A stretch of DNA of 64,000 nt from Roseobacter sp. GTDB taxonomy: Bacteria; Pseudomonadota; Alphaproteobacteria; Rhodobacterales; Rhodobacteraceae. Position 1 is the stretch's first letter. Each line of letters opens with the position of its first letter. The stretch spans positions 30,750 to 94,749 of the forward strand of contig JAGXGZ010000028.1 of assembly GCA_024636495.1 (NCBI GenBank), in the 5' to 3' direction. A program made the translations under genes and the position numbers. This document shows, one piece after another, positions 7,999-42,658 of this stretch. A model generated the notes under the pieces. It made no database searches, was not told the DNA's origin, and saw only the letters and a program-made list of their open reading frames with translations.

Positions 7999-8008
7999 GA
8001 ATCAAGAC

Positions 8009-25101: not shown

Positions 25102-25114
25102 AACTTAAGGATAT
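25100..25114. promoter_or_regulatory. LysR recognition box (T-N11-A dyad) overlapping the lysR start codon
   Basis: ATAAC-TTAAG-GATAT, dyad ATA-N9-TAT. Confidence 0.55.
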
Positions 25115-25186
25115 ATTAAAGGGCTGTCTTTTGATCAAGTTCCAATTGGCGATCAGTTAGCATGCTTACAAAGGGAGGAGTCTGCC

Positions 25187-26257: not shown

Positions 26258-26284
26258 CGACATAGACGTCTGGGAGGACACCAT

Positions 26285-27559: not shown

Positions 27560-27607
27560 CGTATCTTTGGGGGCGCGGGGCAACCCCGCCCCATCAGGAA
27601 ATCTGCC

Positions 27608-28324
27608 ATGATCCTTTCGCTTGAAAATGTATCCAAGTCCTTTGGGGCTTTGACGGTGACCGACAGCGTCACTTTTGAGGTGCCTCAGGGGCAGGCGCTT
27701 GGGATTATCGGACCGAACGGGGCCGGTAAATCGACCCTGTTCAACCTGATCACCGGCAATATCCGGGCCGATCAGGGCCGCATTCACTTTGAGGGTCGCG
27801 ATGTGACACGCGTGTCTGCGATGGAGCGCTGTCTGACCGGGATCGGGCGTTCTTTTCAAATCCCTCAGCCGTTTGAAAAGCTGACGGTGTTCGAGACCCT
27901 TTTGGTGGCCGCCACCCACGGGCGCAACATGTCCGAGGCTGCGGTTGTGGAGGATTGTGCCGATATTTTGGTTCGCACCGAATTGATCGGACGGGCCAAT
28001 ACACCCGCCGGTCAGCTTTCCTTGCTTGAGCGTAAACGGCTGGAGCTTTCGCGCGCGATGGCCACGCAGCCAAAACTGCTGTTGCTTGACGAAATTGCGG
28101 GCGGCCTGACCGAGGGCGAATGCCGGGCTTTGATCGCCACGATCAAGGACATCCACGCGCAAGGTGTCACAATTATCTGGATCGAACACGTGCTTCACGC
28201 GCTGACCTCGGTGGTTGAAAGGTTGCTGGTGCTGGATTTTGGCAAGATCATCGGGATCGGTGCGCCCGAGGCTATTATGGCCTCGAAAGAGGTCCAGGAG
28301 ATATATCTGGGGATCGAAGTCTGA
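27608..28324 (+). CDS. ABC ATP-binding protein (LivG-like)
   Basis: GPNGAGKST, LLLDEIAGG. Confidence 0.92.
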   Translation: MILSLENVSKSFGALTVTDSVTFEVPQGQALGIIGPNGAGKSTLFNLITGNIRADQGRIHFEGRDVTRVSAMERCLTGIGRSFQIPQPFEKLTVFETLLVAATHGRNMSEAAVVEDCADILVRTELIGRANTPAGQLSLLERKRLELSRAMATQPKLLLLDEIAGGLTEGECRALIATIKDIHAQGVTIIWIEHVLHALTSVVERLLVLDFGKIIGIGAPEAIMASKEVQEIYLGIEV

Positions 28325-29031
28325 TGGCGCTTTTGCATACAGACGGGCTGACCGCCCATTACGGTGATTTCCAAGCACTGTTCGGCGTGGATATCACGCT
28401 GGACCAATCCGAAGTGGTCGCGATCATAGGGGCCAATGGTGCGGGCAAGACAACGCTCATGCGGTCGATTTCCGGTGTTTTGCGCAATGCACCTGGGATG
28501 GTCCGGTTTGACGGGGCGAATATCGGCGGCCAACCCGCTGATGAAATCATGGCTCAAGGTGTTGCGATGGTGCCCGAAGGCCGCAAGCTTTTCCCCTCGC
28601 TCAGTGTTGAAGAGAACCTGCTGATCGGCACCTACGGGCGCAAGACCGGGGGGCACTGGAACCTCAAAACCGTTTATGACCTGTTCCCGATCCTGCGCGA
28701 GCGTCGGAACAACCCCGGCACGGCTTTATCGGGTGGCCAACAGCAGATGGTCGCAATCGGCCGCGCCCTGATGAGCAATCCGCGCGTGCTGCTGTGTGAC
28801 GAGATCAGCCTTGGGCTGGCCCCAGTGGTGATCAAGGACATTTACAAAGCCGTGCCCGCGATCAAAGCGGCAGGCGCGTCCCTGATCGTGGTCGAGCAGG
28901 ACATCGGGCAGGCGATGGCTGTCGCTGACCGGGTTTATTGCATGATGGAAGGTCGCGTGACCCTGTCCGGCACGCCCGACACCCTTAGCCGCGAGGCGAT
29001 CCACAACGCGTATTTCGGAGCGGCGGCATGA
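28324..29031 (+). CDS. ABC ATP-binding protein (LivF-like)
   Basis: GANGAGKTT, LSGGQQQM, VPEGR. Confidence 0.92.
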   Translation: MALLHTDGLTAHYGDFQALFGVDITLDQSEVVAIIGANGAGKTTLMRSISGVLRNAPGMVRFDGANIGGQPADEIMAQGVAMVPEGRKLFPSLSVEENLLIGTYGRKTGGHWNLKTVYDLFPILRERRNNPGTALSGGQQQMVAIGRALMSNPRVLLCDEISLGLAPVVIKDIYKAVPAIKAAGASLIVVEQDIGQAMAVADRVYCMMEGRVTLSGTPDTLSREAIHNAYFGAAA

Positions 29032-29891
29032 TCTGGGTGGATACGATCGTCCAAGGTATCCTGTTGGGCGGGCTCTATGCGCTTTTTGCTGCGGGGCTAA
29101 GCCTTGTGTTCGGGATCATGCGATTGGTCAATCTGGCGCATGGCGATCTGATCGTTATGGGGGCTTATCTGATCTTGGTTCTGGTGACGCTGCTAGGCCT
29201 TTCGCCCTTCATCGCTGTGCTGATCGCCATGCCGATCATGTTTGCGCTGGGCTGGGGGCTGCAAAAATTCCTGCTCAACCGCACGCTGGGAGACGATATC
29301 CTTCCGCCGCTTCTGGTGACCTTTGGTCTGTCAATTGTGCTGCAAAACGCCCTTCTTGAAGGGTTCACGGCAGACAGTCAGCGGTTGCCCACGGATGCGC
29401 TAACGACGGCCTCGGTGCAGGTCGGGACGATCTCGCTCGGGGTTATGCCGCTGCTGACATTTGCATCGGCGATTTTGGTGATCATCGGGCTGAACCAGTT
29501 GTTTTACCGCACCTCGCTGGGCCGCGCGTTTCGTGCCACGTCGGATGATCCGGTCACGGCCAGTCTGATGGGCATCAAGCCCGCAAACATTTTTGCTGTG
29601 GCCACTGGCATTGCGATGATCATCGTCACGATTGCTGCCCTTTACCTTGGGCTACGCTCAAACTTTGATCCCAACATCGGGCCAGCGCGGCTGATCTACG
29701 CCTTCGAGGCGGTGATCATTGGCGGGTTGGGATCGCTGTGGGGCACGCTGGTCGGCGGGATCATCATCGGTGTCGCGCAAACTGTTGGTGCCGCGATCAA
29801 CCCCGAATGGCAAATCCTTGCCGGACATATCGCGTTTCTGGTGGTGCTGCTGATCCGCCCGCGCGGGCTTTTTCCAAGGGCACATGACTGA
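29028..29891 (+). CDS. ABC permease (LivH-like)
   Basis: GLSLVFGIMRLVNLAHG motif. Confidence 0.92.
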   Translation: MIWVDTIVQGILLGGLYALFAAGLSLVFGIMRLVNLAHGDLIVMGAYLILVLVTLLGLSPFIAVLIAMPIMFALGWGLQKFLLNRTLGDDILPPLLVTFGLSIVLQNALLEGFTADSQRLPTDALTTASVQVGTISLGVMPLLTFASAILVIIGLNQLFYRTSLGRAFRATSDDPVTASLMGIKPANIFAVATGIAMIIVTIAALYLGLRSNFDPNIGPARLIYAFEAVIIGGLGSLWGTLVGGIIIGVAQTVGAAINPEWQILAGHIAFLVVLLIRPRGLFPRAHD

Positions 29892-30940
29892 TGGCTTACA
29901 CCGTTCGAACACGTACCCGCGCTTCGGGGATTGCAGCGATCATTGGGGCAGCAATAGTCCTTGCGCTGGTCTTCTTGCCGCTTTTTGCCAGCCGCTCGTT
30001 GATTCAGGACATGTTTTTGATCCTGACCATGCTGGTGCTCGCGCAGTTCTGGAACTTGCTGGCGGGCTATGGCGGGCTGGTCAGCATCGGGCAACAGGCT
30101 TTTGTCGGCATGGGGGCCTATACGCTGTTTGGCGTGGTCATTTTGGGCGGGATTGACCCGGTGGCAGCGATCTTGTTTTCAGGGCTGGGTGCGCTGATCA
30201 TTGCCATTCCCACGGCCTTTTTCGCGTTTCGCCTGAATGGCGCGTATTTCGCCATCGGCACATGGGTCATCGCCGAGGTCGTGCGCCTGCTGGTCGCGCA
30301 ATGGAAAACCTTGGGCGGTGGGACCGGCACGTCACTCCCCCGCGAGGCGACGCGCGACATGTGGTTCGTGCCGACGGTTGAGACCCTGTTGGGCGTCAGA
30401 TCTGCTGCCGCCCGCGATATCCTGGCCTATTGGCTGGCGCTTGCCTTGGCTGTCGCCACAATCGGCGGGATTTATTGGCTGCTGCGTACCCGGCGCGGTC
30501 TGGCGCTGGCCGCGGTGCGCGATAACATCGAGGCCGCAAAATCCGTTGGTGTCGATGCGGTGCGGATGAAATGGATCGTGTTCCTGACCTCGGCCTTTGG
30601 CACAGGCCTCACCGGCGGGCTGATCTACATGCAAAAGGCGCGCATCAGCCCCGATGCGGCCTTTAGCGTGACCGACTGGACGGCTTACGTGATCTTTATC
30701 GTGGTCATTGGCGGTATCGGAACGATCGAGGGCCCGATCCTTGGTGTACTGATCTTTTTTGCCCTGCAATCCTTGCTGGCTGATTTCGGCAGCTGGTACC
30801 TCATGACGCTTGGCGTGCTTGCGATCACCATCATGCTTGTCGCACCGCGCGGCCTTTGGGGCTTGCTGTCAGAGCGCACAGGCCTTCACCTTTTCCCCGT
30901 CCGGCGTCAGCTGGTCGCCCCCAAACCATCGGAGACATAA
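29891..30940 (+). CDS. ABC permease (LivM-like)
   Basis: WNLLAGYGGLVSIGQ, GAYFAIGT, IGGIGTIEGP. Confidence 0.92.
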   Translation: MAYTVRTRTRASGIAAIIGAAIVLALVFLPLFASRSLIQDMFLILTMLVLAQFWNLLAGYGGLVSIGQQAFVGMGAYTLFGVVILGGIDPVAAILFSGLGALIIAIPTAFFAFRLNGAYFAIGTWVIAEVVRLLVAQWKTLGGGTGTSLPREATRDMWFVPTVETLLGVRSAAARDILAYWLALALAVATIGGIYWLLRTRRGLALAAVRDNIEAAKSVGVDAVRMKWIVFLTSAFGTGLTGGLIYMQKARISPDAAFSVTDWTAYVIFIVVIGGIGTIEGPILGVLIFFALQSLLADFGSWYLMTLGVLAITIMLVAPRGLWGLLSERTGLHLFPVRRQLVAPKPSET

Positions 30941-30941
30941 A

Positions 30942-32705
30942 ATGGCTGATATCGAAACCGAAGTTCTTGTTATCGGCACCGGGCCTGCCGGATCAACGAC
31001 GGCTGCCTTGTTGTCAACTTACGGTGTGCCCAACGTCGTGATCAATCGCTATCATTGGCTGGCCAATACCCCGCGTGCGCATATCACCAATCAACGCACG
31101 ATGGAGGTTCTACGCGATCTTGGCCGCGAGGTCGAAGACGAGGTTTATCTTAACGCGATGGATCAAAGCCTGATGGGCGAGAACGTTTTCTGCGAAAGCC
31201 TCGCAGGCGAGGAAATCGGTCGGATGAAGTCCTGGGGCACGCATCCCCTGTCCAAGGCGGAACATCTGCTATCCTCGCCGTCTTTCATGAACGATCTGCC
31301 CCAGACCTTTATGGAACCAATCCTGTTCAAGACCGCTTGCAAGCGTGGCACCCGCGCCCGGATGAGCACAGAGTATCAAAGCCATGTTCAAGACGCCGAC
31401 GGTGTCACAACGACATGCCTTGATCGGATGACAGGGCAACAGATTACCATTCGTTCGAAATACCTTGTCGGTGCTGATGGCGGCAATTCTTTGGTCGCCG
31501 AAACGGAAAATCTACCCTTTGAAGGCCAGATGGGCGTGGGCGGGTCGATGAACATCTACTTTCGGGCAGATCTGTCCAAATACGTCAAACACCGCCCGTC
31601 GGTTCTTTATTGGGTGATGCAACCCGGTGCTGACGTGGGCGGCATCGGCATGGGGCTTGTGCGCTGCATCCGCCCTTGGAACGAATGGCTGATCGTTTGG
31701 GGGTATGACATCAACGAACCGGCCCCCGTCGTGGATGCCAAGATGGCGACCGATGTGGCGCGCCAACTGGTGGGTGATCCCGAACTGGAGATCGAGCTGA
31801 TCAACGCCAATACGTGGACTGTGAATGACACCTATGCCACGCAAATGTCCAAGGGACGTGTGTTCATTATGGGCGACGCGGCGCATAGACACCCGCCGTC
31901 TAACGGGCTGGGGTCGAACACGTCTATTCAGGATGCATTCAATCTGGCATGGAAGCTGGCCGCCGTGCTTAAAGGGCAGGCGGGTCCGGCATTGCTTGAC
32001 AGCTATACAACCGAACGCGCCCCGATTGCCAAGCAGATCGTGACCCGTGCCAACCAGTCTATCGGAGAGTTCGGCCCGATTTTCCAGGCATTGGGCATGA
32101 CCGGTGGCACGGATGTCGAAAAAATCCAGGCAAACATGGATGCGCGCTGCGATTCCACGCCAGACGCCGAAGCGCAGCGCACCGCGTTGAACGAGGCGAT
32201 TGCTTTCAAGAAGTACGAATTTGATGCGCACGGCGTCGAGATGAACCAACGCTACTGTTCAGATGCGATCGTGACCGACGGGCAGATGGAGCCTGATTTC
32301 ACCCTTGACGCGGATCTGCACTACCAGCCCACCACGTGGCCGGGGGCCCGTATTCCTCATGTCTGGCTGTTCGATGCGCAGGGCAACAAATGCTCGAGCT
32401 TGGATCTTGCCGGGCACGGCGTGTTCACGCTGTTCACCGGGCTGGGCGGCAAGGCATGGGCGGACGCGGCGGCGCAGGTTGCGTCAGACATGGGCATCGT
32501 GATCGAGGCGCATGTGATCGGACCACGCCAGCAGTATGTTGACCACACTGGCGATTGGGCGCGCGCGCGCGAAGTGGGCGATGCCGGGTGCATCATCACG
32601 CGCCCCGACCAACATGTCTGCTGGCGTCATGACGGCGGCGAGGTTGATCATGCAAGCGAGCTTTTGCGTGTGTTGCGTACAATTCTTGCAAAACAGGAGG
32701 GCTAA
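30942..32705 (+). CDS. Single-component FAD-dependent phenol monooxygenase (TfdB/resorcinol-hydroxylase-like)
   Basis: GTGPAG, PRAHITNQRTME, LVGADG, GDAAHRHPPSNGLGSNT, C-terminal thioredoxin-like RPDQHV. GGAGA upstream of ATG 30942. Confidence 0.88.
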   Translation: MADIETEVLVIGTGPAGSTTAALLSTYGVPNVVINRYHWLANTPRAHITNQRTMEVLRDLGREVEDEVYLNAMDQSLMGENVFCESLAGEEIGRMKSWGTHPLSKAEHLLSSPSFMNDLPQTFMEPILFKTACKRGTRARMSTEYQSHVQDADGVTTTCLDRMTGQQITIRSKYLVGADGGNSLVAETENLPFEGQMGVGGSMNIYFRADLSKYVKHRPSVLYWVMQPGADVGGIGMGLVRCIRPWNEWLIVWGYDINEPAPVVDAKMATDVARQLVGDPELEIELINANTWTVNDTYATQMSKGRVFIMGDAAHRHPPSNGLGSNTSIQDAFNLAWKLAAVLKGQAGPALLDSYTTERAPIAKQIVTRANQSIGEFGPIFQALGMTGGTDVEKIQANMDARCDSTPDAEAQRTALNEAIAFKKYEFDAHGVEMNQRYCSDAIVTDGQMEPDFTLDADLHYQPTTWPGARIPHVWLFDAQGNKCSSLDLAGHGVFTLFTGLGGKAWADAAAQVASDMGIVIEAHVIGPRQQYVDHTGDWARAREVGDAGCIITRPDQHVCWRHDGGEVDHASELLRVLRTILAKQEG

Positions 32706-32708
32706 GCA

Positions 32709-33590
32709 ATGTCTACGCAAGAAAAAGGGTATTTCACCGAGGAAAACTCCGCCGATGTTGTGGTGTCGCGGATCGGGCCGTCAACCGATGCGCGGCTTGC
32801 GCGGGTCATGGCCGCGATCACGCGTCATTTGCATGCCGCGGTAAAGGAGGTTGAGCCCACCCAAGAAGAATGGATGGCGGCCATCCAGTTTTTGACCAAG
32901 ACCGGACATAAATGCGACGACTGGCGTCAGGAGTTCATTTTGCTAAGCGACGTGATGGGCGTCTCGATGCTGGTTGATGCGATCAACAACCGCAAGCCAT
33001 CGGGTGCCTCCGAAAGCACGGTTTTGGGTCCTTTTCATGTGCCCGATGTGCCGGAATTGCCGATGGGGGCGAACATCTGCCTGGACGGCAAAGGGGACCC
33101 TATGCTGATCAAGGGCCGGATTGTCGGGACAGACGGCGCGCCGCTTGCGGGGGTCAAGCTTGATGTCTGGCAGACCAACGACGACGGCTTTTACGACGTC
33201 CAGCAAAAAGGTATTCAGCCCGACTTTAATCTGCGGGGGGTATTTCGCACAGCCGACGACGGGACCTATCACTTTTGGGGCGCAAAGCCACGTTTTTATC
33301 CGATCCCCGATGACGGCCCGGTGGGGCAGCTGCTGGGCAAGCTGGGACGGCACCCTTACCGTCCCGCGCATCTGCATTTCATTTTGGAGGCGGCAGGGTT
33401 CGAGACGCTGATCACCCATATCTTTGATCCCGACGACAGGTACATCCACTCGGACGCCGTGTTTGGGGTCAAGGAAAGCCTTTTGGCCAAGTTTGATCTG
33501 ATCGAAGATCCGGTGCGCATTTCAGCCGAAGGTGCCCAAGGCCCGTTCTATGAGGTCGTGCATAATTTCGTCCTCGCGCCGACAACATGA
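32709..33590 (+). CDS. Intradiol ring-cleavage dioxygenase, hydroxyquinol 1,2-dioxygenase type
   Basis: RQEFILLSD, LGPFH, GFYD, FYPIPDDGPVG and RPAHLH iron-ligand motifs. Confidence 0.88.
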   Translation: MSTQEKGYFTEENSADVVVSRIGPSTDARLARVMAAITRHLHAAVKEVEPTQEEWMAAIQFLTKTGHKCDDWRQEFILLSDVMGVSMLVDAINNRKPSGASESTVLGPFHVPDVPELPMGANICLDGKGDPMLIKGRIVGTDGAPLAGVKLDVWQTNDDGFYDVQQKGIQPDFNLRGVFRTADDGTYHFWGAKPRFYPIPDDGPVGQLLGKLGRHPYRPAHLHFILEAAGFETLITHIFDPDDRYIHSDAVFGVKESLLAKFDLIEDPVRISAEGAQGPFYEVVHNFVLAPTT

Positions 33591-33621
33591 TCGGCGTTTG
33601 AAACGCCAATGCCGATGTGCG

Positions 33622-34172
33622 AGCCTTGTTGCAAAAATCGGTCTGAGGGTGAGTGGACCCCATTTGCCAAAGGGACTTAGCCTTCTGCCGGGGTGACAGG
33701 TATGCAATAAGGGAGTAGCGGTTGAGGACCGCGTTGCGGGTTTGGATTTCCGCGACCTGCCTTTCAAAGTTTCGCGCCATGAACGACTGGCCAGTATAAT
33801 CAAACAATGCGCTTTTGTTTCAACGCGGCTTCGGCGGTGGTATCGGCGTCCCCAAATACCGTTGGGCGTAGGCCGGATCGAGGCGGCATTTGCTTCGGCG
33901 CGCGTCCACTTCCCGGCAGTGCATGCCCGCATGCTCAAGAGGGGGCTTAAAAAGGCTTGGCATTCTTGCGCGGTGGGACGACCATATGCGTGTCTTGGGC
34001 GGCAATTGCCTTGCGGCATTTACGGGTGTCATGCGCCCCGTCTTCGGTAACACTGCCGATGTGTTGATCGGATGGGATTTGGTTCAGCAGCTTGGGTAGC
34101 ATGGGTGTATGCGCGATGGTGCTGCTGATGACTACGAAGGCTCGTACTTCCCGCGTTTCGTCGTCGATACCC
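33622..34172 (-). pseudogene. Decayed 3' half of an IS5-family (IS903-group) transposase with right inverted repeat
   Basis: Fragments GIDDETREVRA...DGAHDTRKC...PPRKNAK, YHRRSRVETK and RQVAEIQTRNAVLN lie in different frames. AGCCTTGTTGCAAAAATC at 33622 resembles the IS903 end GGCTTTGTTGAATAAATC. Confidence 0.8.
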
Positions 34173-34458
34173 CCTCTCGGCAGCATGTTGTGCATGCGCC
34201 TGTCGAAACGGCAGCATGACGCTTGGCAGGCAGAACGCGATCTTCGGTCTCGTCCGAGGTTGAGGTCTTTTCGCCGCGTGTGACCCAGACTTGCAGGTCG
34301 TTGACCGCATAGACGACACGCCCCCCGATTTTGGAGTAGTGCGGGCCGGTTCCGTAGGTGCGATGTTTCTCGAGGGTGCGGCCTGAAAGGCCGAGGAAAT
34401 GGGCGGCTTCAGGGGTTCTGAGGTAGCGGGGCGGAATTCCTTCGTTGGGGTCGGGCAT
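34132..34458 (-). CDS. rdfS: AlpA/MerR-like HTH excisionase (RdfS-like recombination directionality factor); tail runs into IS DNA
   Basis: RYLRTPEAAHFLGLSGRTLEKHRTYGTGP..SKIGGRVVYAV is the typical ICE RdfS signature; GGAGA RBS. Confidence 0.85.
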   Translation of the reverse strand: MPDPNEGIPPRYLRTPEAAHFLGLSGRTLEKHRTYGTGPHYSKIGGRVVYAVNDLQVWVTRGEKTSTSDETEDRVLPAKRHAAVSTGACTTCCREGVSTTKRGKYEPS

Positions 34459-34540
34459 CTGAGTATCTCCGGTGGCTAGGCCTCGCGGCGGCGCGCTGCG
34501 GGCTGTCGGAGGTCATCAAAACGAAAAACGGCCATGTAGA

Positions 34541-34576
34541 GGGATGACGAAGATCGCAACGCAAAAACGTCACCCC
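34541..34576 (-). promoter_or_regulatory. Inverted repeat upstream of rdfS, candidate FseA activator box
   Basis: GGGATGACG-N18-CGTCACCCC (8/9 match). Confidence 0.55.
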
Positions 34577-34634
34577 CTTGTTGCGGACCGATGCTGGGAG
34601 GGGAAAGTGCTGGTGAGTCAGGTGCTCTCGGTGA

Positions 34635-35138
34635 TTATTTGCGCCGTTTGTTCTGTTTTGTTGGACCTCGACCGAGAAGCAAAAGGCGATAGCCTTTGTT
34701 GGTCAGGTGCGTTCCATGGGCAGATAGGCGGATGATCTGGGCCTTAAGGGATCTGGTCTTCCAGTGCTCGCGCGACACCGCTTCCGCACCGAATAAATGC
34801 CGCGCGATTTGCTGGTAACTGGCGCTGTCCCGACGCGCATCAAGCGTGCGAAGCGCAAGCAGAATGCGGCGGCGTTGCTGCATGGTTAGGGGCGAAACTG
34901 ATCGTTTGCGGTTTGTCAGTTGTGCGTGAAGTGACTTGAGCGCTTCCAGGCGGACCGTCCAATGTTCGTCCAGTGGCAGCAAGATGCCAGCAGGGCGGTT
35001 AATTGTCTTTGCGTCCAGAACGACCAAAGCACCGGTTGGCAGACGCACATACATCTGACCGTCCTGCGTCCCGATGACGGTGAGATCATCTTCATCGATG
35101 CGGCGCAGGTGTTTCGTCTCCAGGAACTGGCGCAACAT
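34635..35138 (-). CDS. fseA: DUF2285-domain 3' part of an FseA-like activator
   Basis: ALRTLDARRDSASYQQIARHLFG...W...SLKAQIIRL...GYRLLL pattern; lies between the DUF6499 ORF and rdfS. Confidence 0.8.
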   Translation of the reverse strand: MLRQFLETKHLRRIDEDDLTVIGTQDGQMYVRLPTGALVVLDAKTINRPAGILLPLDEHWTVRLEALKSLHAQLTNRKRSVSPLTMQQRRRILLALRTLDARRDSASYQQIARHLFGAEAVSREHWKTRSLKAQIIRLSAHGTHLTNKGYRLLLLGRGPTKQNKRRK

Positions 35139-35206
35139 ATCCGACCGCCGCCGGAGCGACGGATGGGTTCCAGAACAGGCGAGCGTTTAGGGCGTCGATA
35201 TCCGGA

Positions 35207-35377
35207 TCAACCGGGAAATCGTAACCCCCATGCAGCCAGCGATTTTTGTCCTTCCCGCAACTGCGGGTAATCTGCGCGATAATCGGAATTGCGGCGCAAA
35301 CATTCCCAAGCCATCCCGGACAAATCCAGGCTCTTGAAATGTGCATATGCCGCATCGTCGCGCCAGTCCTTGGTCAT
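35207..35377 (-). CDS. fseA: DUF6499 5' part of an FseA-like activator (msi172-like), ending in a frameshift motif
   Basis: WRDDAAY, AWECLRRNSDY and AWGLRFP; GGAG RBS before ATG 35377. Confidence 0.82.
   Translation of the reverse strand: MTKDWRDDAAYAHFKSLDLSGMAWECLRRNSDYRADYPQLREGQKSLAAWGLRFPG
35213..35233 (-). other. +1 programmed ribosomal frameshift motif
   Basis: GCA TGG GGG TTA CGA TTT CCC fits the msi172-type TGG.GGN.NTN.NNN.TTT.C consensus as I recall it; the +1 frame continues FPVDPD...LFW. Confidence 0.75.
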
Positions 35378-35507
35378 GGCGAAGCTCCGCGTCAGCGTTT
35401 TGATAAAGTGGAAATATAGCGTCCCGCGACGGGCAGGCGACGTCTTGACGGGTTGACGCACGCAACTTGGGCGCGAACTTGCCGATTTGTCGGAGAATGG
35501 GCGACGT

Positions 35508-35780
35508 TCAGCCTTTGCGGCCCTCTAGCAGCTTGCGGTAGCCGTGTTCCGTCATCCAACGCGCGTGGGCGAGGTGGCTGTCATAGACAATTTGAGCGCG
35601 GTCCGGTTCCTTTTCCGCATCGATTCCGAACAGAATCTGGCAGATTTCCTGTAAAGTGGCCCCGCTTTCTGCAGCATCGAATAGGCGCAGATAGAGCGTC
35701 ATGTGCGCGTGGTCATATTCGGTCAAAGAGTCGCCCTGTGGTGCAAGGTCAGAGATCGGCGCGGTGCCGGTAGTAGGCAT
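35508..35780 (-). CDS. qseM: QseM-like antiactivator
   Basis: LTEYDHAHMTLYLRLFDAAESGA...ILFGID...PDRAQIVYDSHLAHARWMTEHGYRKLL matches the QseM family; divergent from an XRE gene. Confidence 0.8.
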   Translation of the reverse strand: MPTTGTAPISDLAPQGDSLTEYDHAHMTLYLRLFDAAESGATLQEICQILFGIDAEKEPDRAQIVYDSHLAHARWMTEHGYRKLLEGRKG

Positions 35781-35871
35781 GATTCCCCCTCGCCCTTGGG
35801 GCGTTTTGGTCCATACAAGCACATCCGGTTGCGCATGCAAGGTCGGATTGCGGTCAGTCAAACTGCAAATC

Positions 35872-35900
35872 GGTATTATAATACGTCGCACCAAAATACG
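35872..35900. promoter_or_regulatory. Tandem controller-protein operators (OL/OR-like)
   Basis: GGTATTATAATACG (35872-35885) and CGCACCAAAATACG (35887-35900), 15-bp period; 13/14 and 10/14 matches to the palindrome CGTATTATAATACG. Confidence 0.65.
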
Positions 35901-35921
35901 CGATAGGCTTTTTACCTGCGG

Positions 35922-36143
35922 ATGGATATCCGCGTTATTTTTGCAAGGAATCTAAAGCACTACCGCGAACAGCGCGGGCTAACGCAGGCCGCATTGGCCG
36001 CGGCAATGGATGTCGACCGCGCCCATGTCAGCGCGATGGAGCGTGCCAAACAAAACGTGACCTTGCAGACCCTTCAGCGTCTGGCGGAGCATTTGGAGCT
36101 GGAGCCAGCGAAGCTGATCAAAGAACGTGCCGATAGCGTGTAG
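35922..36143 (+). CDS. qseC: XRE-family controller protein, QseC-like
   Basis: FARNLKHYREQRGLTQAALA...DRAHVSAMER...NVTLQTL HTH_3 pattern; no obvious SD sequence. Confidence 0.82.
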   Translation: MDIRVIFARNLKHYREQRGLTQAALAAAMDVDRAHVSAMERAKQNVTLQTLQRLAEHLELEPAKLIKERADSV

Positions 36144-36256
36144 GGTTGGTGGAACTTGCAATTAATGCCTGGAAAAAGCCGGTTGGTGGAAAAGGCCGCG
36201 TCAACGCGGGCGGCAAGCATAAGGACCTAACGATCGGGCGACTAACGGTTCTTGGG

Positions 36257-36574
36257 CTACGGCTTGCGTGACTTGCTGCGCTGGGTCCAATCGGCCCCGG
36301 CATAGGTCACGGCGTGGATATACACCTCGCGCGCGTTGTCATCGACGGTGAAGGCGACCAAGGCCTTTCGGCCTGCAGGAATTGCGCGCAGCCCGGGCGC
36401 GATCTCATCGCGGCGACTGCCCTTGTGCGGAACGTCTGCCAAACTACCGATGGTTGCCTCTATCTCGTCCAGTCGACGCGCAGCCGATTGCGGACCGGAA
36501 TAGTCGATCAGCCAGCGCGCGATGGCACCAAGATCGTCCGCGACCGCCGGATGAAGCCGGACGCGATAGCTCAC
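36257..36574 (-). CDS. Type II toxin, RelE/ParE family
   Basis: YRVRLHPAVADDL...PHKGSRRDEIAPGLR; overlaps the upstream antitoxin. Confidence 0.85.
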   Translation of the reverse strand: MSYRVRLHPAVADDLGAIARWLIDYSGPQSAARRLDEIEATIGSLADVPHKGSRRDEIAPGLRAIPAGRKALVAFTVDDNAREVYIHAVTYAGADWTQRSKSRKP

Positions 36575-36840
36575 GCTTCGCGCGCGGCCTGCAGCCGGGC
36601 CCGTGCAGGGGCAAACGTGTCCTCGGCCGAAACATAGTCAGCACGCGGTGTCTCAAGACGCACTCTGATCTCCTCGGCCATCGCCCCAAGGGCCAACTCG
36701 CGTTCTTCTTCATCACGGATCATCTGTTCAAGCGCCGTCGCGACAGCCGCGCTTTGTGAAGCGAAAACGCCTTGTCCGACCTTGTCGGTAAGGAACCGAT
36801 GGTGGCGGTCGGTGAAGCTCAGCGTTGTTTTGACGGTCAT
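36571..36840 (-). CDS. ParD-like ribbon-helix-helix antitoxin
   Basis: KTTLSFTD...G.FASQSAAV RHH pattern, acidic tail, GGAGG RBS. Confidence 0.82.
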   Translation of the reverse strand: MTVKTTLSFTDRHHRFLTDKVGQGVFASQSAAVATALEQMIRDEEERELALGAMAEEIRVRLETPRADYVSAEDTFAPARARLQAAREA

Positions 36841-36854
36841 GGCGGCCTCCAGGG

Positions 36855-36869
36855 TATGACTTAGTCATA
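36855..36869. promoter_or_regulatory. Palindromic autoregulatory operator of the TA pair
   Basis: TATGACT-T-AGTCATA, 14 nt upstream of the antitoxin ATG. Confidence 0.65.
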
Positions 36870-37056
36870 TACATGAAGGCGCGCGGGTGGGCAACTACCT
36901 TGCGAAGGGCAGTATCCGGAATTTCGCTGCGGGTGCATGCAATGCATGGAGCGACGCTAAAAGATGACATCCCAAAATGTGCGTGTTTTGCGGAACTTTT
37001 TGAAAATGGTCGGCGAAATTCAGCCTCTGAGGTCAAATTGGTTAAGCGCTCCTAAG

Positions 37057-37788
37057 CTATTTATTTTGTTGTGTTCGATTGTAAAGCTCGCGGACAAAAA
37101 CTGAATGCTGCCCTTTCTGAAATACAACATGTAGCTCTTGCTCTGAGCGGGTCACGGCGACATAGAATTCACGCTTTTCAGCGTTCATCTTATTCGGATC
37201 GCTCTTGCTTCGCCAATTTGGTATTACGTCATTGTTCATTCCCAGCAGGGTGACAGCGCGAAATTCTCGACCTTTTGAACTGTGAAACGTGCTTAGGTTA
37301 ATAGCGCCAGTTCCGGAAGAGTATCCACAAAACTGAGCCATTTTGAGGTCCGCGCCGCCTTTCTTGGCGGGGTCTGTCCTCCCAATCATTTCATCTACAT
37401 TATCCCAGTGTTCCGATATCGTGCGCGTTCGAGCAAACCAAGGTGATAAAATATCGCGTTTGAAGTCGAGCAGCCAAGAGTGGGTCGAGGCCGCCCCGTC
37501 CATAGGGATAAGGAAGGTAATGAGCTCATGTTCAATTTGGCGCTTCTCCTCATCCGAGGCGGTCCCGCCGTACACCAAAGAAATCGCATCATAGTAAAGC
37601 CGCTGAAATCTTGGTTCAGCAGTTTTCCAACCTCCGACAACCCATTGAGCGCATCTTTCTACAAACCTCGAAACTGGCGAGTTTCTCTTTATCAGGGCTT
37701 TGTTGTCTGCCCGTACCACTGGCACACCTTTGAAACCGGAGGCCGTCGAACTCAGCCTGCAGGCGATGTTCTTTGCTGGGCTTTCCAT
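37057..37788 (-). pseudogene. Chimeric ORF: short ICE-derived N-terminus fused to the C-terminal half of a UvrD/SF1 helicase
   Basis: Motif V STFHSSKGREF and motif VI REFYVAVTRSE present, no Walker A/B; low GC; GAGGAGG RBS before MESPAKNIACRL. Confidence 0.7.
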
Positions 37789-37816
37789 CGATGCCTCCTC
37801 TCTTTGGTGGGGATGG

Positions 37817-37845
37817 AAAAAGGGCCCACCGTTTCCGATGGGCCC
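37817..37845 (-). terminator. Intrinsic terminator after parB
   Basis: Minus strand reads GGGCCCATCG-GAAA-CGGTGGGCCC-TTTTT. Confidence 0.7.
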
Positions 37846-37904
37846 AAGGTGTCCGGTGGGGCGGGCGGCCTGGGGGACGGTTTGGGCCCGACCAACCGGA
37901 TGCG

Positions 37905-39965
37905 TCACTCGGCAGCTGTCTTGGCGAAGGCGTCCGTGGCGACGGGATCATCGTCGCCCGACACTTCGGAATCTCCGATAGCCGGTTCGCCGCCGTCTTC
38001 CGCCGTTTGCTCTTCGCTTGTGTTGGTGTCTTCAACCGAAGCCGATTCATCGAGGTTGTCGACTAGTTCGAATGCCGGGCCATCCTCCGCCGGCAGTGGC
38101 GGCGTGCGCAGCGGTTCCGGCAGCCAGCCGGTGCCCGCCAGCAGATCCTCTGCAGCAGTGACCATCTCCGGCTTCTTGAGGCCTGAGATGCGGTCGGCGG
38201 CGTTCTCGCCCTTCGCTTCGTGAACGGCCTCGAGGATGCGGGCCTTGGTCACGCGACCGAGATAGCTGTCGCCCGTTACCACCCAGCCAACCTTGGCCAT
38301 GTCGAGCCCGACAGTCCCGGCCAGCACATCCGCATGCGCGATCGCGTGGGGGCGGCGCTGGTAGGGATCGTGGACGGCATTCACGCTCATCGCCACGCAG
38401 TGTGCGAGCAGCGCCTCGCGGCTGCAACTGTCGAACTCGGTCAGCGCCTCCCAGAGGTCTTCCGACGCCTTGGGCAGATTGCGCGCCCAGGTCTCGTGCC
38501 GCTGATCGATGGCCTGCGCATAGGCCGTGTCGCCAAGGCCCAGCACTTGCGACCCGAAGGCCGCGTTGCGCGGTTCGATCTCGACGCAGCTGTCGATGCC
38601 GTAACGGTAGAACAGCCGTAAAGTCATCGCATGGAGCGCCGCGAGGTAAGCGGCCTGCGGGTCCTGCGCCAGTGCATTGCGAAGCGCCAGAGTGCGATGC
38701 GCCGTCAACTCCATGATGAGGCGGTCGGAGAGCGGCTTGAGGCCATCTTCTTCCTCCTCGTCTTCGGCGGCGGGCGCGACGGTGTCGTCCGCATCCTCGA
38801 CGATCTGAGTTTTAGCATCGGCGTCGCCGGTCTCCTCCATTTCCTCGACCAGTTCGTCTTCAGCCCGCACATGGCCGCGCTCGACGCGCAGCCGCCCAGA
38901 ACTGTCGATGCTGACAAAGGCACCCGCCAAGGCCAAGTCTACCGCCTCGAACCGGATCGGGCGGTCCTGTAATGCTTCCATCGCCGTCTCGATTTCCCCG
39001 AGCCGTGCGTCGACCTCATCGGGCAACTCATCCACCTCGGCATGGTCGGCCTCGAGCGCGTCGTATTCGGCTTTCAGTGCCTGATAGTCGGCGGCCTCAA
39101 CGTCGCTCATCGGCTCTGCCTCGCCATGAATGCGCCGCATGCCAAAGGTGTGCCCATAGGGAAAGTCGGTGTCGACCTCGACCCACTTCCAGCCCTCGGC
39201 CCGGATCACTGCGGCCTCCTCGGCCAGCTTTTCGGTCACCATGACGTCGAGTAGGCTGGCGTCTTGCAGCCAGCCGCCGTCATCCTGCTGGAACAGGTCG
39301 CGCAGGATGTCGCCCCCGGCCTCGACATAGTTGTCGAGCCCCACGAACTGCGCCCGCTTGTCCGAGGCCCGCACCGCGCCCTCGGTCAGCATGCGGCGGA
39401 TTTCGTAGGGCTGCTTGGAATAGTGCCGCTGCAGCGCCTCCCAAACCTGTTCCTGCCGCGCGTGGTCAGGGTTGACCGTGAAGGCCATCAGCTGGTCGAG
39501 CGTCATTTCCTCCTCGGCGTAGACGTCATGCAGCGCGGGTGCGACGGCGGCGAGCTTCAGCCGCTGCTTGACCACGCTGGCCGAAACGAAGAAGGCGGCG
39601 GCGATCTCCTCCTCGGTGCAGCCCTTCTCGCGCATCGCCTGAAACGCGCGGAACTGGTCCAAAGGATGCAGCGGTGCGCGCTGGATATTCTTAGCCAGGC
39701 TGTCTTCTTCCGCGAGGCCATCCATGCGCACGACGCAGGGCACAAGGGCAGTCTTGTTCAGACGCTTCTGCTTTACGAGCAGCTCCAGCGCCCGGAACCG
39801 CCGCCCACCGGCTGGGATTGTGAACATGCCGGTCTCGGCACCGTTGTCGTCCAGCACGGGCCGCACGGTGATCGAGGCCAGCAGCGTCCGCCGGGCGATA
39901 TCCTCGGCCAGCTCCTCAATCGACACGCCCGCCTTGACGTGGCGCACGTTCGATTGGCTGAGCAT
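37905..39965 (-). CDS. ICE ParB/RepB/Spo0J-like protein, 5'-truncated
   Basis: LSQSNVRHVKAGVSIEELAEDI, GGRRFRAL and LHPLDQFRAF motifs; the usual ~20 N-terminal residues are replaced by DUF932 DNA. Confidence 0.8.
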   Translation of the reverse strand: MLSQSNVRHVKAGVSIEELAEDIARRTLLASITVRPVLDDNGAETGMFTIPAGGRRFRALELLVKQKRLNKTALVPCVVRMDGLAEEDSLAKNIQRAPLHPLDQFRAFQAMREKGCTEEEIAAAFFVSASVVKQRLKLAAVAPALHDVYAEEEMTLDQLMAFTVNPDHARQEQVWEALQRHYSKQPYEIRRMLTEGAVRASDKRAQFVGLDNYVEAGGDILRDLFQQDDGGWLQDASLLDVMVTEKLAEEAAVIRAEGWKWVEVDTDFPYGHTFGMRRIHGEAEPMSDVEAADYQALKAEYDALEADHAEVDELPDEVDARLGEIETAMEALQDRPIRFEAVDLALAGAFVSIDSSGRLRVERGHVRAEDELVEEMEETGDADAKTQIVEDADDTVAPAAEDEEEEDGLKPLSDRLIMELTAHRTLALRNALAQDPQAAYLAALHAMTLRLFYRYGIDSCVEIEPRNAAFGSQVLGLGDTAYAQAIDQRHETWARNLPKASEDLWEALTEFDSCSREALLAHCVAMSVNAVHDPYQRRPHAIAHADVLAGTVGLDMAKVGWVVTGDSYLGRVTKARILEAVHEAKGENAADRISGLKKPEMVTAAEDLLAGTGWLPEPLRTPPLPAEDGPAFELVDNLDESASVEDTNTSEEQTAEDGGEPAIGDSEVSGDDDPVATDAFAKTAAE

Positions 39966-40363
39966 CGGTGGTTGGTAAGTCCGTATTGGAGGTTGATGCC
40001 CGCCAACGGCGCGGGCAATTGACGCAGATAGGCGGCAGGCGCGCCGACGAGGCTGGATAACTGCCCAAAGCTCCAATGCGTTGGCGCGATGGGTTCGTCG
40101 GCACCGGGCAAGACGAGCCCCAACTTCTCAGGATTATCACGATGCGCCTCGACGCGGATCGCAGCGCTTTCCACCGTGCGCGTCCGGCTGCGCTCGGCCC
40201 GGCCCTTCACCGAAGCGAAGAGGTCGTCGAGCGACAGATACCGCTCGTCATCCGGCCGCGAGAACCATTCGGACGACACGCGGTCCACGTTTGTGCCGCG
40301 CGACACATCCACTTTGTAGCCGCCGTTGATGTCACGCCCGGCATCGATAATTTCGGTATTCAT
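39966..40363 (-). pseudogene. N-terminal third of a DUF932-family protein, truncated by deletion
   Basis: SSEWFSRPDDERYLSL and PTHWSFGQL...APAAYLRQLPAPLAGINLQYGL; homology ends at the parB junction. Confidence 0.8.
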
Positions 40364-40454
40364 GGATTTTCTCCTGCGACGGGCGGCCGAAACCCTCTCT
40401 CTCGACCTCCAAACCCGTCACGGACCGGGAAAGCGTTCCTCTCACTCTCTGTGA

Positions 40455-41543
40455 TCACTCGGCTGCTAGGTGAGCGGACGGGAACGACGCGCGCGCCGCG
40501 GCTAGGCCATGCAACGCTTCCGGCCGAATATGCGTATAGCGGCGCAGCATCTTCCAATCCTTGTGCCCGGTAACCAGCGCGACCTGTTCGATGGCGAAGC
40601 CTGCTTCGAACAGACGACTTGTGCCTTCATGTCGCAAGTCGTGGAAGTGCAGGTCCTTGATATTGACCTCCACGCAGGCGCGCCGGAAGGCTGTTCCGAC
40701 AGATCGCGAATTGTAGGGAAACATCCGGCCCGTCGCGCGCCTAAGCTCCTTGGCCTGCGCCGTAACCAGCGCCCAGGCGTCGAACCCGGTTGCGGCAAAG
40801 AGCGGGATCCGCTGGTCGTTGCCAGTCTTGTTGCGCGGATCTTTCCGGTCGCGGATTAGGAGCATGCGCCGATCAAGGTCGAGATCCGTCCATTCGACCC
40901 GGTAAATCTCGTCGAGCCGCATCGCGGTGGCCACTGCAAACTGCACGATCCTAGTCATTGGCAGGGTGAGGCGTTCGTTGTCATCGAAGCAGCGGAAGAG
41001 CCGGTTCAACTCATCCTTAGTGGGTCGGCGATCCCGCTCGGTGCCCTTGCCGATCAGCCCGAGACGCTTGAGCGCAACACGGGCCAGATCAACGGGTTCC
41101 GAGGAGATGTCGAGGCCGTGTACGGCTGCAGCATGGGTTATGATCATCTTGGTTACGCCGATATCGATGCCAAGTGTCACCGGACCTGCGCCTTGCTCCG
41201 CGCGCATCTTGCCATAATCGATCATCTTTTGGCGATCCAGGTGCCCGATCCGTTCCTTGCCCAGATCGCGCTTCAAGGCGGAAAGGGTCGCGGCCTTGCT
41301 GCGGCGCGGTGGTTTGCCTACCTCGCACATATCGATTATGTGAAGATCGATGAGATCGCCAAAAGTTGCAAGGCGGGACACGGATGACTTGTTCGGGGCC
41401 AACCCCTGATCCACTCGGGTCTCGGCCTGGCGGGCCCAGCGGTGGGCGTCATCGCGCAGGAGAAATGTCTTGCTCGCGTAGCGGCCCTTTCGTCTGATCT
41501 GGACCCGGTAAGCACCGGAGGGGAGTTTTGTGATGGAGGCCAT
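40455..41543 (-). CDS. int: Tyrosine integrase, dusA-associated type
   Basis: AMRLDEI (R), RKDP (K), HDLRH, GH and RRYTH (Y): catalytic set appears intact; divergent from dusA. Confidence 0.92.
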   Translation of the reverse strand: MASITKLPSGAYRVQIRRKGRYASKTFLLRDDAHRWARQAETRVDQGLAPNKSSVSRLATFGDLIDLHIIDMCEVGKPPRRSKAATLSALKRDLGKERIGHLDRQKMIDYGKMRAEQGAGPVTLGIDIGVTKMIITHAAAVHGLDISSEPVDLARVALKRLGLIGKGTERDRRPTKDELNRLFRCFDDNERLTLPMTRIVQFAVATAMRLDEIYRVEWTDLDLDRRMLLIRDRKDPRNKTGNDQRIPLFAATGFDAWALVTAQAKELRRATGRMFPYNSRSVGTAFRRACVEVNIKDLHFHDLRHEGTSRLFEAGFAIEQVALVTGHKDWKMLRRYTHIRPEALHGLAAARASFPSAHLAAE

Positions 41544-41656
41544 TTTCGTGTGCGCTGTGTGTGCAATGAGTCGTCGTAGAGGGGCAAATTCGGGGGTATT
41601 GGGGCGTAGTGCAGCGTAGCAGCAACCGCCGCCAACAGTTTAAAGATACACAAAAA

Positions 41657-42658
41657 ATGCAAATAAATCAACACGCTAGATTATCTATTGCGCCTATGAT
41701 GGATTGGACAGACCGCCATTGCCGCTATCTGCACCGGCTCATGTCCAGACACGCGCTGCTTTACACCGAAATGGTGACGTCGCCCGCGCTTGTGCGTGGT
41801 GGGGCGCTTCATTTGTTGGATCACAACCCGCAAGAGCATCCTGTCGCGTTGCAATTGGGGGGATCGGACCCGGACGAACTGGCCGAGGCCGCCCGGATTG
41901 GTGCGCAGGCGGGATATGATGAGATTAACCTTAACGTTGGCTGCCCGTCTGACCGGGTGCAATCGGGCAGTTTCGGCGCTATTTTGATGGAGCAGCCTGC
42001 GCTTGTGGCCAAATGCGTGGGCGCGATGCGCCGTGCGGTTGACGTTGAGGTGACTGTGAAGTGTCGCATTGGCGTGGATGATCAGGATCCCGAAGACATA
42101 CTCCCCGAGTTTCTGGCCCATATCGTGGGCGCAGGCTGCGAGCGGGTGACGATCCATGCGCGCAAGGCGTGGCTTAAGGGGTTAAGCCCCAAGGAAAACC
42201 GCGACATCCCGCCTTTGGATTACGATCTGGTGCACCGGATGAAGGGGCTGTTTTCGAACCTGCACATCTCGGTCAATGGGGGAATAACGAGCCTTGATCA
42301 GGCGGAGGCATTCCTAGAGGGTGGCCTTGACGGCGTGATGATCGGGCGCAGCGCCTACCACAATCCTGCGGAAATCCTTTGCCAGGCGGACCGGCGTATT
42401 TTTGGCAAAGGCGAAGACACAACTGCGGAAAATGCCGTTCAGCAGATGTTGCCCTATATTGACGCGCATATTGACGGGGGCGGCAGGCTTAACCAGATCA
42501 CCCGTCATATGATGGGGCTGTTCGCGGGGCGCCCCGGTGCGCGGATCTGGCGGCGGATGCTGTCGGAAAACGCCTCAGGGCCGGGGGCGGACCGTCAGGT
42601 TTTGCTGGATGCGCTGGATGCGATGCAAACGCTGGCAGAGGCGCAAGAAGCGGTGTAG
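41657..42658 (+). CDS. dusA: tRNA-dihydrouridine synthase A
   Basis: APMMDWTDRHCR, LYTEM, EINLNVGCPSDRVQSG, VKCRIG and HARKAWLKGLSPKENR motifs. Confidence 0.95.
   Translation: MQINQHARLSIAPMMDWTDRHCRYLHRLMSRHALLYTEMVTSPALVRGGALHLLDHNPQEHPVALQLGGSDPDELAEAARIGAQAGYDEINLNVGCPSDRVQSGSFGAILMEQPALVAKCVGAMRRAVDVEVTVKCRIGVDDQDPEDILPEFLAHIVGAGCERVTIHARKAWLKGLSPKENRDIPPLDYDLVHRMKGLFSNLHISVNGGITSLDQAEAFLEGGLDGVMIGRSAYHNPAEILCQADRRIFGKGEDTTAENAVQQMLPYIDAHIDGGGRLNQITRHMMGLFAGRPGARIWRRMLSENASGPGADRQVLLDALDAMQTLAEAQEAV

Follow-up and report, generated by a model that had tools for sequence, protein, structure and literature searches.

The 64,000-nt window analysed here (Roseobacter sp., contig JAGXGZ010000028.1; all positions below are those of the window unless a relative is named) contains a stretch of ~8 kb (33614–41680) that adjoins the tRNA-dihydrouridine synthase gene dusA. 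With a probability of about 0.8, this stretch (hereafter the relic) is an immobile, recently decayed remnant of an integrative and conjugative element (ICE) that integrated at dusA and was governed by QseC, QseM, FseA and RdfS. The parent element very probably belonged to the ICEMlSymR7A type, which has this same control circuit, and was inserted at the 5′ end of dusA in a Sulfitobacter chromosome. All genes of the relic lie on the minus strand, except qseC (Table 1). The reading is supported by (i) four independent lesions; (ii) the loss of one attachment (att) site and of all transfer genes; (iii) replacements in RdfS and QseM that are found only in the relic; and (iv) integrase stubs in two other Sulfitobacter loci (L034 and L035). 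The original prediction, made from the letters alone, had offered decay in progress as one of two readings of this locus, and the lesions, the missing att site and transfer genes, and the stubs support it. It had also held that the ~8 kb keeps int, parDE, qseC, qseM, fseA and rdfS with their cis sites: this stands for int, parDE, qseC, qseM and the cis sites, but not for fseA, which carries a 2-bp deletion, nor for an intact rdfS, of which 85 of 93 codons are left.

Identity of the relic and its host

Relatives were gathered in a scan with one genome per species. The resulting 26 loci are mostly from Rhodobacterales, with one from Hoeflea; their FseA identity is 69–79%, and the gene order ParB...ParD-ParE...qseC / qseM-fseA-rdfS is common to all of them. 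In the locus of Sulfitobacter delicatus (L019), rdfS (93 aa) is followed by genes for an S26 peptidase (TraF), an SLT transglycosylase, a DUF3363 relaxase and a type IV coupling protein, which is the gene order after rdfS in the rdfS operon known from R7A. In another relative (L028), the order is dusA / int (362 aa) – DUF932 (397 aa) – ParB (684 aa) – DUF7146/Toprim – YAcAr – DUF736 – cargo. The relic is therefore derived from a full ICE of that type.

The host is a Sulfitobacter: its DusA is 92–95% identical to Sulfitobacter DusA, and the genes of the right flank (TauE, DUF1289, RuvX, sarcosine oxidase and SodB) are syntenic with Sulfitobacter genomes. The metagenomic origin of the sequence raises the question of a chimera or another assembly artefact, and contigs are indeed interrupted at the 5′ end of dusA, where several variants exist side by side. 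However, 99% of the region's words are present in two independent cold-spring metagenome runs (X1 and X2), and contigs of 12.3 and 15.0 kb from these runs cover 33000–41595 with zero differences and an even depth of ~12, spanning all four lesions. An identical structure in the contigs of two runs is therefore not an assembly artefact, and a chimera is barely credible. Every other run holds at most 25% of the region's words, and the relic is known from one study only.

Loss of the transfer genes and of one attachment site

The first lesion cuts rdfS, which encodes the excisionase. The gene is 94% identical to its relatives, but over residues 1–85 only: similarity ends at 34200–34204, at codon 86 of 93, and the open reading frame (ORF) reads on into IS5-derived sequence as far as 34132. 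In contigs of four other runs, rdfS continues from 34200 with an intact 3′ end. The adjoining sequence was identified as IS5 by blastn matches to IS5 transposase genes on roseobacter plasmids, by an annotated IS5 of Leisingera and by the Pfam domain DDE_Tnp_1 on ORF 33947–34195. The outer end of this IS5 remnant lies ~25–30 nt past the stop codon (33590) of an intradiol dioxygenase gene, while the inner end is cut off where it meets rdfS. Because the joint is inside both rdfS and IS5, it is the end-point of a deletion or rearrangement and not an insertion. The left flank consists of a LysR-FeADH-ABC-monooxygenase-dioxygenase cluster that other roseobacters keep with unrelated neighbours, nowhere linked to dusA or to transfer genes, so that the left junction is a novel joint.

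In the relatives, traF, the transglycosylase gene and the relaxase gene follow rdfS; in the window, rdfS breaks off at codon 86 with none of these genes behind it. The TraF, SLT, relaxase, coupling protein, YAcAr and DUF736 sequences of the relatives have no match anywhere in the 64-kb window, which agrees with the original prediction that no relaxase remains there. Mating-pore genes are likewise lacking from the window's ORF inventory, which holds only metabolic and transport genes, although no homology search was aimed at them. No traF-SLT-relaxase or coupling-protein genes occur at an identity of at least 80% in the two metagenomes that hold the relic. When these metagenomes were aligned to the L019 sequence, the relic contig stopped at the rdfS break and elsewhere only short conserved snippets were covered.

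Could the missing part lie elsewhere in the genome? A split (multipartite or rearranged) ICE might be reassembled, as in the tripartite ICEs of Mesorhizobium, which belong to the same family (PMC5882170), and a novel joint with an unrelated catabolic cluster makes a rearrangement conceivable. This is nevertheless very unlikely, given that the junction lies inside a truncated IS5 and the rdfS coding sequence and not at an att site, that fseA is frameshifted, that DUF932, parB and the Toprim gene are broken, and that the two metagenomes yield no traF-SLT-relaxase genes, within the above identity limit, at the depth of the relic.

At the other end of the relic, the integrase gene is of full length. 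Every column that is invariant in 25 homologues is kept; homologues of equal length range from 96% to 63% identity, with the integrases of Mesorhizobium ICEs at 63–68%, and an exact-protein look-up returned no record. The gene ends 113 nt from the dusA ATG. The DusA N-terminus and the DNA upstream of it vary between strains leftwards from 41681, which marks the attL side as element-derived. We searched for a second att site, or a displaced dusA 5′ end, by looking for direct repeats, by matching a 29-mer with 3 mismatches allowed, and by running the dusA 5′ region through blastn-short and the native and core DusA N-termini through tblastn; only dusA itself was found in the 64-kb window, so that excision is impossible. 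In two other Sulfitobacter loci (L034 and L035, 9427–9890), all that remains of the same int gene beside dusA is its first ~460 nt, and the DusA N-terminus is of the same element type. Another Sulfitobacter lineage (L031, 7856–8293) has an unrelated 145-aa integrase fragment at dusA. From these sequences, the dusA 5′ end in Sulfitobacter evidently gathers remnants that appear to be at different stages of decay.

An intact integrase and a surviving RdfS core also bring to mind a small integrative mobilisable element (IME), that is, an island with int, rdfS and regulators that borrows the conjugation machinery of a related ICE. Small IMEs of Mesorhizobium share att sites with ICEs (PMC8627217), and RdfS1-64 suffices in R7A (PMC11963761). 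With its winged-helix core kept, the RdfS of the relic might still fold, but it would do so with neither an activator nor a partner att site. The absence of a second att site, and hence of excision, speaks against an IME, as does the loss of the DNA upstream of the relaxase gene, a region that holds oriT in R7A; moreover, the gene fragments plainly arose by deletion from a complete ICE backbone. An IME is thus a remote prospect, and we return to the decayed ICE.

Internal deletions and the loss of fseA

The second and third lesions affect the backbone, where the original prediction was correct in reporting truncated or fused genes. Homology to L028 runs from dusA through int to 39966 and resumes at 39964, with 990 bp of L028 skipped; the gap removes the last two-thirds of the DUF932 gene, the spacer and the first 20 codons of parB. 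Contigs of other runs part from the window exactly at 39966. The DUF932 fragment runs on out of frame to 39773. The parB junction carries an ATG, and no ribosome-binding site is evident. The ORF 37905–40076 was rejected as an intact 723-aa ParB because its first 37 codons are out-of-frame DUF932 sequence.

The Toprim gene follows parB in intact elements. In the window, Toprim homology stops at ~37741, and homology to the relatives returns only at ~36975, ~135 bp upstream of parD. The DNA in between holds the tail of a gene for a helicase of ~700 aa, the leftover of a cargo gene. The window's 'parB' and 'helicase' ORFs should therefore be annotated as fragments. The parD and parE genes themselves overlap by 4 nt and have the same lengths as in intact relatives.

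Two side observations concern this part of the element. About 60 nt upstream of DUF932 (40360–40422) are repeated at 84% identity upstream of parB in L028 (12447–12507), which suggests a shared promoter or operator of these two backbone genes. Many relatives (e.g. L019 at 7542–8828, L007 and L010) have a 428-aa gene lacking a Pfam match between parE and qseC; it is missing from the window and from about one-third of the relatives.

The fourth lesion lies in fseA. In R7A, FseA has an AWEFLRRN motif and is made through a +1 shift at WGL / UGGGGG (PMC10359603), and the N-terminal ORF in the window likewise ends in WGL followed by a stop codon. The frameshift motif TGGGGGTTACGATTTCCCGGTTGA (also given as UGGGGGUUACGAUUUCCCGGUUGA) is identical in the window and the relatives apart from one A to G change in L011 and one G to T change in L025. 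Downstream of this site, however, the window lacks the 2 bp 'GA', which are present in contigs of three other runs (X3, X6 and X10; 96–100% identical here) and absent in X1 and X2; over 346 nt of fseA, one X3 contig differs from the window by nothing but these 2 bp. This suggests a recent origin of the lesion. The predicted post-shift product of the relic has 122 aa and retains DUF6499, but not the DNA-binding DUF2285. As judged from its reading frames, fseA is a pseudogene in which the continuous frame after the programmed shift is lost. For annotation, the frameshift in fseA has one component that is programmed and another that is a true lesion. The claim that the switch is kept was accordingly overstated, since its activator arm is broken.

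The FseA box, the presumed target of this activator, is still in place: its geometry agrees with the description of two inverted hexamers 16 bp apart (PMC10359603). The rdfS gene behind it differs from its nearest copy (X3) at six synonymous and three non-synonymous positions. Among 25 loci and four runs, only the window carries the three replacements (R40H, D53N and A57V), which compare with 0.3–0.5 expected at the family's ratio of non-synonymous to synonymous substitution rates (dN/dS) of 0.017–0.03 (rough Poisson P ~0.004–0.016). Residue D53 corresponds to Asp58 of R7A RdfS, which forms a salt bridge between protomers (PMC11963761).

Table 1. Positions of the features of the relic and of dusA, with the evidence for each (strand: +, plus; -, minus;., not assigned).
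Feature	Position	Strand	Evidence
IS5-family remnant, C-terminal half of transposase (~residues 157–323 of 323), in three frames	33614–34199	-	blastn; tblastn
rdfS (excisionase / recombination directionality factor), 3′-truncated, 85/93 native codons	34200–34458	-	Pfam HTH_17; PDB 8dgl RdfS, E 1.6e-8
FseA box upstream of rdfS, inverted hexamers TGACGT-N16-TCGTCA, 28 bp	34545–34572	-	Alignment: block conserved in all relatives
fseA 3′ part, DUF2285 (RovC_DNA-bd) DNA-binding domain, out of frame	34635–35099	-	Pfam PF10074, E 1e-24; relatives match from ORF residue 13/14
2-bp deletion inactivating fseA	35099/35100	-	Gap in window only versus 6 aligned relatives
+1 programmed-frameshift motif at end of fseA 5′ ORF	35207–35230	-	Alignment with relatives
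fseA 5′ ORF, Msi172-like, DUF6499 with AWECLRRN motif	35207–35377	-	Pfam PF20109, E 2.7e-17
qseM, antiactivator, DUF2285 only, 90 aa, open, true start ATG 35780	35508–35780	-	Pfam PF10074; PDB 7uqt QseM, E 9.1e-19 over 78 residues
Divergent qseM/qseC control region, 141 bp	35781–35921	.	Alignment of 26 sequences
qseC, controller-protein-like helix-turn-helix (HTH) repressor, 73 aa, open	35922–36143	+	Pfam HTH_3; PDB 9xz9 QseC, E 2.2e-7; restriction–modification controller protein C.AhdI, E 4.1e-8
parE, 105 aa	36257–36574	-	Pfam ParE_toxin, 39.1 bits (cut-off 23)
parD, 89 aa	36571–36840	-	Weak ParD-family match TIGR02606, 22.9 bits (cut-off 46.2); synteny
Filler without homology to the relatives' backbone	36976–37740	-	Limits of homology
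UvrD/PcrA-like helicase, last ~80 codons, cargo-gene leftover	~37117–37320	-	Pfam UvrD_C 282–348 of 350; NCBIfam PcrA/UvrD ~545–625 of ~720
DUF7146/Toprim 5′ stub, ~40 codons	37741–37857	-	tblastn of L019 Toprim protein, residues 66–103 only; Pfam on the L019 gene
parB-like gene without first 20 codons, own start and upstream region	37905–39965	-	blastn/tblastn versus L028 ParB residues 21–663; NCBIfam ParB-family matches
DUF932 5′ fragment, ~132/397 codons	39966–40363	-	blastn to L028 and L027 ends at 39966; plasmid DUF932 genes; Pfam DUF932 on intact L028 gene
int, tyrosine integrase, 362 aa, full length	40455–41543	-	Pfam Phage_integrase; all family-invariant residues present
attL side, element-derived DNA giving dusA upstream region and first codons	41544–41680	.	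blastn versus L031–L033 starts at 41681
dusA, tRNA-dihydrouridine synthase A, integration target, intact	41657–42658	+	Pfam Dus, E 9e-80; 92–95% to Sulfitobacter DusA

The qseC–qseM core and the possibility of co-option

Both qseC and qseM are open. A longer, TTG-started ORF (35508–35894) was rejected as QseM, given that in-frame homology with the relatives begins only at the ATG at 35780 and that the DNA upstream is conserved but non-coding. In the control region, a 33-nt core ATTATAATACGTCGCACCAAAATACGCGATAGG (~35875–35907, plus strand) is identical in the window and in 22 of the 25 relatives and is a putative operator; a −10-like palindrome, GTATTATAATAC (35873–35884), lies within the core region. 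A scan of 34100–37100 with the sigma-70 consensus, which is uninformative for this host, gave no match. Just downstream of GTATTATAATAC, a cluster of 3–4 substitutions at 35863–35872 is specific to the window (CCGATT versus CTCATC in 25 relatives and in X3 and X6); it may alter the expression of qseM or qseC, or be neutral.

The QseC-coding sequence differs from its X3 copy by synonymous changes only. The sole relic-specific change in QseM is R72H, with histidine found in the window only. It falls on the residue equivalent to Arg68 of R7A (the numbering offset was fixed by matching residues), whose change to alanine impairs antiactivation and FseA binding (PMC10359603). The R7A residues Tyr18, Asp19, Tyr26, Arg28, Leu29, Asp31, His65, Leu66 and Trp71 are conserved, whereas Leu30 is Phe in the QseM of the window.

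A surviving antiactivator invites a second reading, which the original prediction had put beside decay: that the host keeps qseC and qseM (together with parDE and int) as a co-opted module, whose QseM silences in trans the FseA of related ICEs that land at the occupied dusA. The consequence would be a lower cost of activation of the incomers, or a limit on their onward transfer. QseM binds to FseA at its DUF6499 domain by a protein–protein contact (PMC10359603) and could therefore work in trans; the control core is intact and both regulator genes are open, with qseC under synonymous change alone. Cognate targets exist as well, since near-identical elements (96–100% in fseA/qseM) circulate and were found in several environments. 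Against this, R72H hits the very residue whose change to alanine impairs FseA binding in R7A, a cluster of window-specific substitutions lies in the promoter-proximal region, and the relic is confined to one study, whose only RNA run is very small and gave no reads from this locus. (Near-identical fseA/qseM contigs of related elements occur in two runs labelled as RNA from elsewhere; they have no bearing on the relic.) Furthermore, the four lesions and the L034/L035 stubs are those of a locus that is being lost and not kept.

The dN/dS comparison that had been proposed as a check does not separate the two readings. For rdfS, qseM, qseC, parDE and fseA against 9–25 relatives, dN/dS is 0.06–0.19, like that of pairs of relatives; at dS values of 0.6–1.0 the signal stems from life as an intact ICE and not from the relic phase, so that with available data the comparison has no power. 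Taken together, the trans-acting role for QseM/QseC finds no positive support, and R72H runs contrary to it. We consider co-option unlikely. Its specific form, in which one of the near-identical ICEs that circulate in marine communities would integrate at the still usable attL/dusA and be kept in the transfer-off state by resident QseM binding its FseA, with qseC-qseM (plus parDE and int) as a trans damper, seems still more doubtful. Even then, 'superinfection immunity' would be the wrong term: QseM would not keep an incomer out but would silence its excision and transfer, and so would stabilise the incomer rather than exclude it.

Proposed history of decay

We therefore favour decay, and propose the following history. 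In the intact element, as known from R7A and here by homology and synteny, (i) the QseC repressor and the divergent qseM promoter would form a switch; (ii) rare +1 ribosomal frameshifting would yield full-length FseA; (iii) FseA would bind the FseA box and turn on the rdfS-traF-transglycosylase-relaxase operon; and (iv) RdfS together with the integrase would excise the element. In the relic, a deletion from rdfS codon 86 into an IS5 copy took away traF, the relaxase and coupling-protein genes and the far att site, and presumably the genes of the mating pore as well. The 990-bp deletion fused DUF932 to parB, a larger one took the Toprim gene through the cargo up to ~135 bp before parD, and the 2-bp deletion killed fseA. 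With one att site and no activator, the relic neither excises nor transfers.

Which pieces survived was plausibly shaped by ParDE addiction and by the dusA start that the element supplies. The toxin–antitoxin pair parDE would kill cells that lose it, and this would bias the deletions that persist towards end-points at one side or the other of the parDE-qseC-qseM block. The suggested hold by the toxin–antitoxin pair and the dusA 5′ end, which the original prediction had put forward, fits the deletion end-points. FseA-driven expression of rdfS inhibits growth in R7A (PMC10359603), and for this reason the loss of FseA or a weaker RdfS is expected to be neutral or favourable. The RdfS replacements and R72H of QseM are suggestive of relaxed constraint, although with such small numbers they are not proof.

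Several points weigh against this interpretation. The window ends 33 kb to the left, and beyond it could lie a far att site or some portion of the element that has been relocated; the metagenome check for transfer genes reaches only down to 80% identity. In addition, int, parD, parE, qseC and qseM are open and the qseC/qseM core is unchanged, and retained function would look alike; decay of these open genes themselves is not demonstrated. They make up ~2.2 of 7.5 kb, however, so that their chance escape from four lesions is unremarkable. Finally, the part played by ParDE in shaping the deletions is inferred, and its toxicity is putative.

Neighbouring sequence

Several observations concern the flanks. 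The depth in the source metagenome rises from ~12 to 19–23 over part of the IS5 remnant (33972–34295), and a 33-nt word (34170–34202) is common to several other contigs, which points to related IS5 copies elsewhere in the community or genome. The cluster to the left (24151–33590) encodes a LysR regulator, an Fe-alcohol dehydrogenase, a branched-chain-type ABC transporter, an FAD aromatic-ring hydroxylase and the intradiol dioxygenase, a unit that is conserved in other roseobacters. In L038, the operon extends into BKACE, nitroreductase and TRAP transporter genes at the point that the IS5 remnant occupies in the window; the catabolic operon may therefore be truncated in the window. Far to the left, a 911-aa ORF (40–2775) has a start rich in glycine/aspartate nonapeptide-like repeats (GGAGNDTIDGGDGSD...) and resembles an RTX-type calcium-binding secreted protein.

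Comparison with known systems

The closest system is ICEMlSymR7A of Mesorhizobium japonicum R7A, with related Mesorhizobium ICEs (PMC8789080, PMC10359603, PMC11963761, PMC8627217). QseM, QseC and RdfS of the relic match the R7A proteins in the PDB directly; FseA combines DUF6499 and DUF2285, carries the AWE(F/C)LRRN motif and shares the +1 frameshift site; a 28-bp FseA box precedes rdfS, which in intact relatives heads a traF-transglycosylase-DUF3363 relaxase operon; and qseC is divergent from qseM across a shared control region with a predicted operator. Non-symbiotic Mesorhizobium ICEs likewise use dusA (PMC8627217). By contrast, the relic has a marine roseobacter host, its circuit shows no neighbouring traR/traI quorum-sensing genes, and qseM, fseA and rdfS stand in direct co-linear order; the relic has further lost the function of fseA, the whole set of transfer genes and one att site.

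The relic also resembles dusA-associated integrase islands (Farrugia et al. 2015, PMC4482086) in having a tyrosine integrase gene divergent from and immediately upstream of dusA, and in that its element swaps the dusA 5′ end for its own. This likeness is one of gene position and, unlike these islands, the relic keeps the int-proximal junction only.

Decayed or defective ICEs and cryptic prophages are a general phenomenon. The relic shares with them piecemeal deletion, IS-associated truncation, the retention of integrase, toxin–antitoxin and regulator genes, and a graded series of remnants at the same site in related strains; no essential difference is apparent. Repressor-mediated immunity, in which a resident regulator acts in trans on a related incomer, is found in ICEBs1 (ImmR) and in defective prophages. 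If co-option held, the antiactivator QseM would, unlike ImmR, block excision and transfer and not establishment, and such action by the relic's QseM is hypothetical.

Significance

Known from work on Mesorhizobium, the QseC/QseM/FseA/RdfS circuit is also common among the dusA-integrating ICEs that marine roseobacters carry. In this setting, the relic is a well-resolved further case of a decayed ICE, from the ICEMlSymR7A regulatory family, at the known target dusA, in a roseobacter; such decay is ordinary. Its value is that of a base-resolved snapshot of the break-up of an FseA/QseM-family ICE, in which the transfer half was lost in association with an IS, internal deletions left the toxin–antitoxin pair in place, the growth-inhibiting activator arm underwent point inactivation, and RdfS and QseM acquired their first replacements. 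The relic opens a new question only if the surviving antiactivator acts in trans; if that were true, the host would have domesticated the antiactivator of an ICE.

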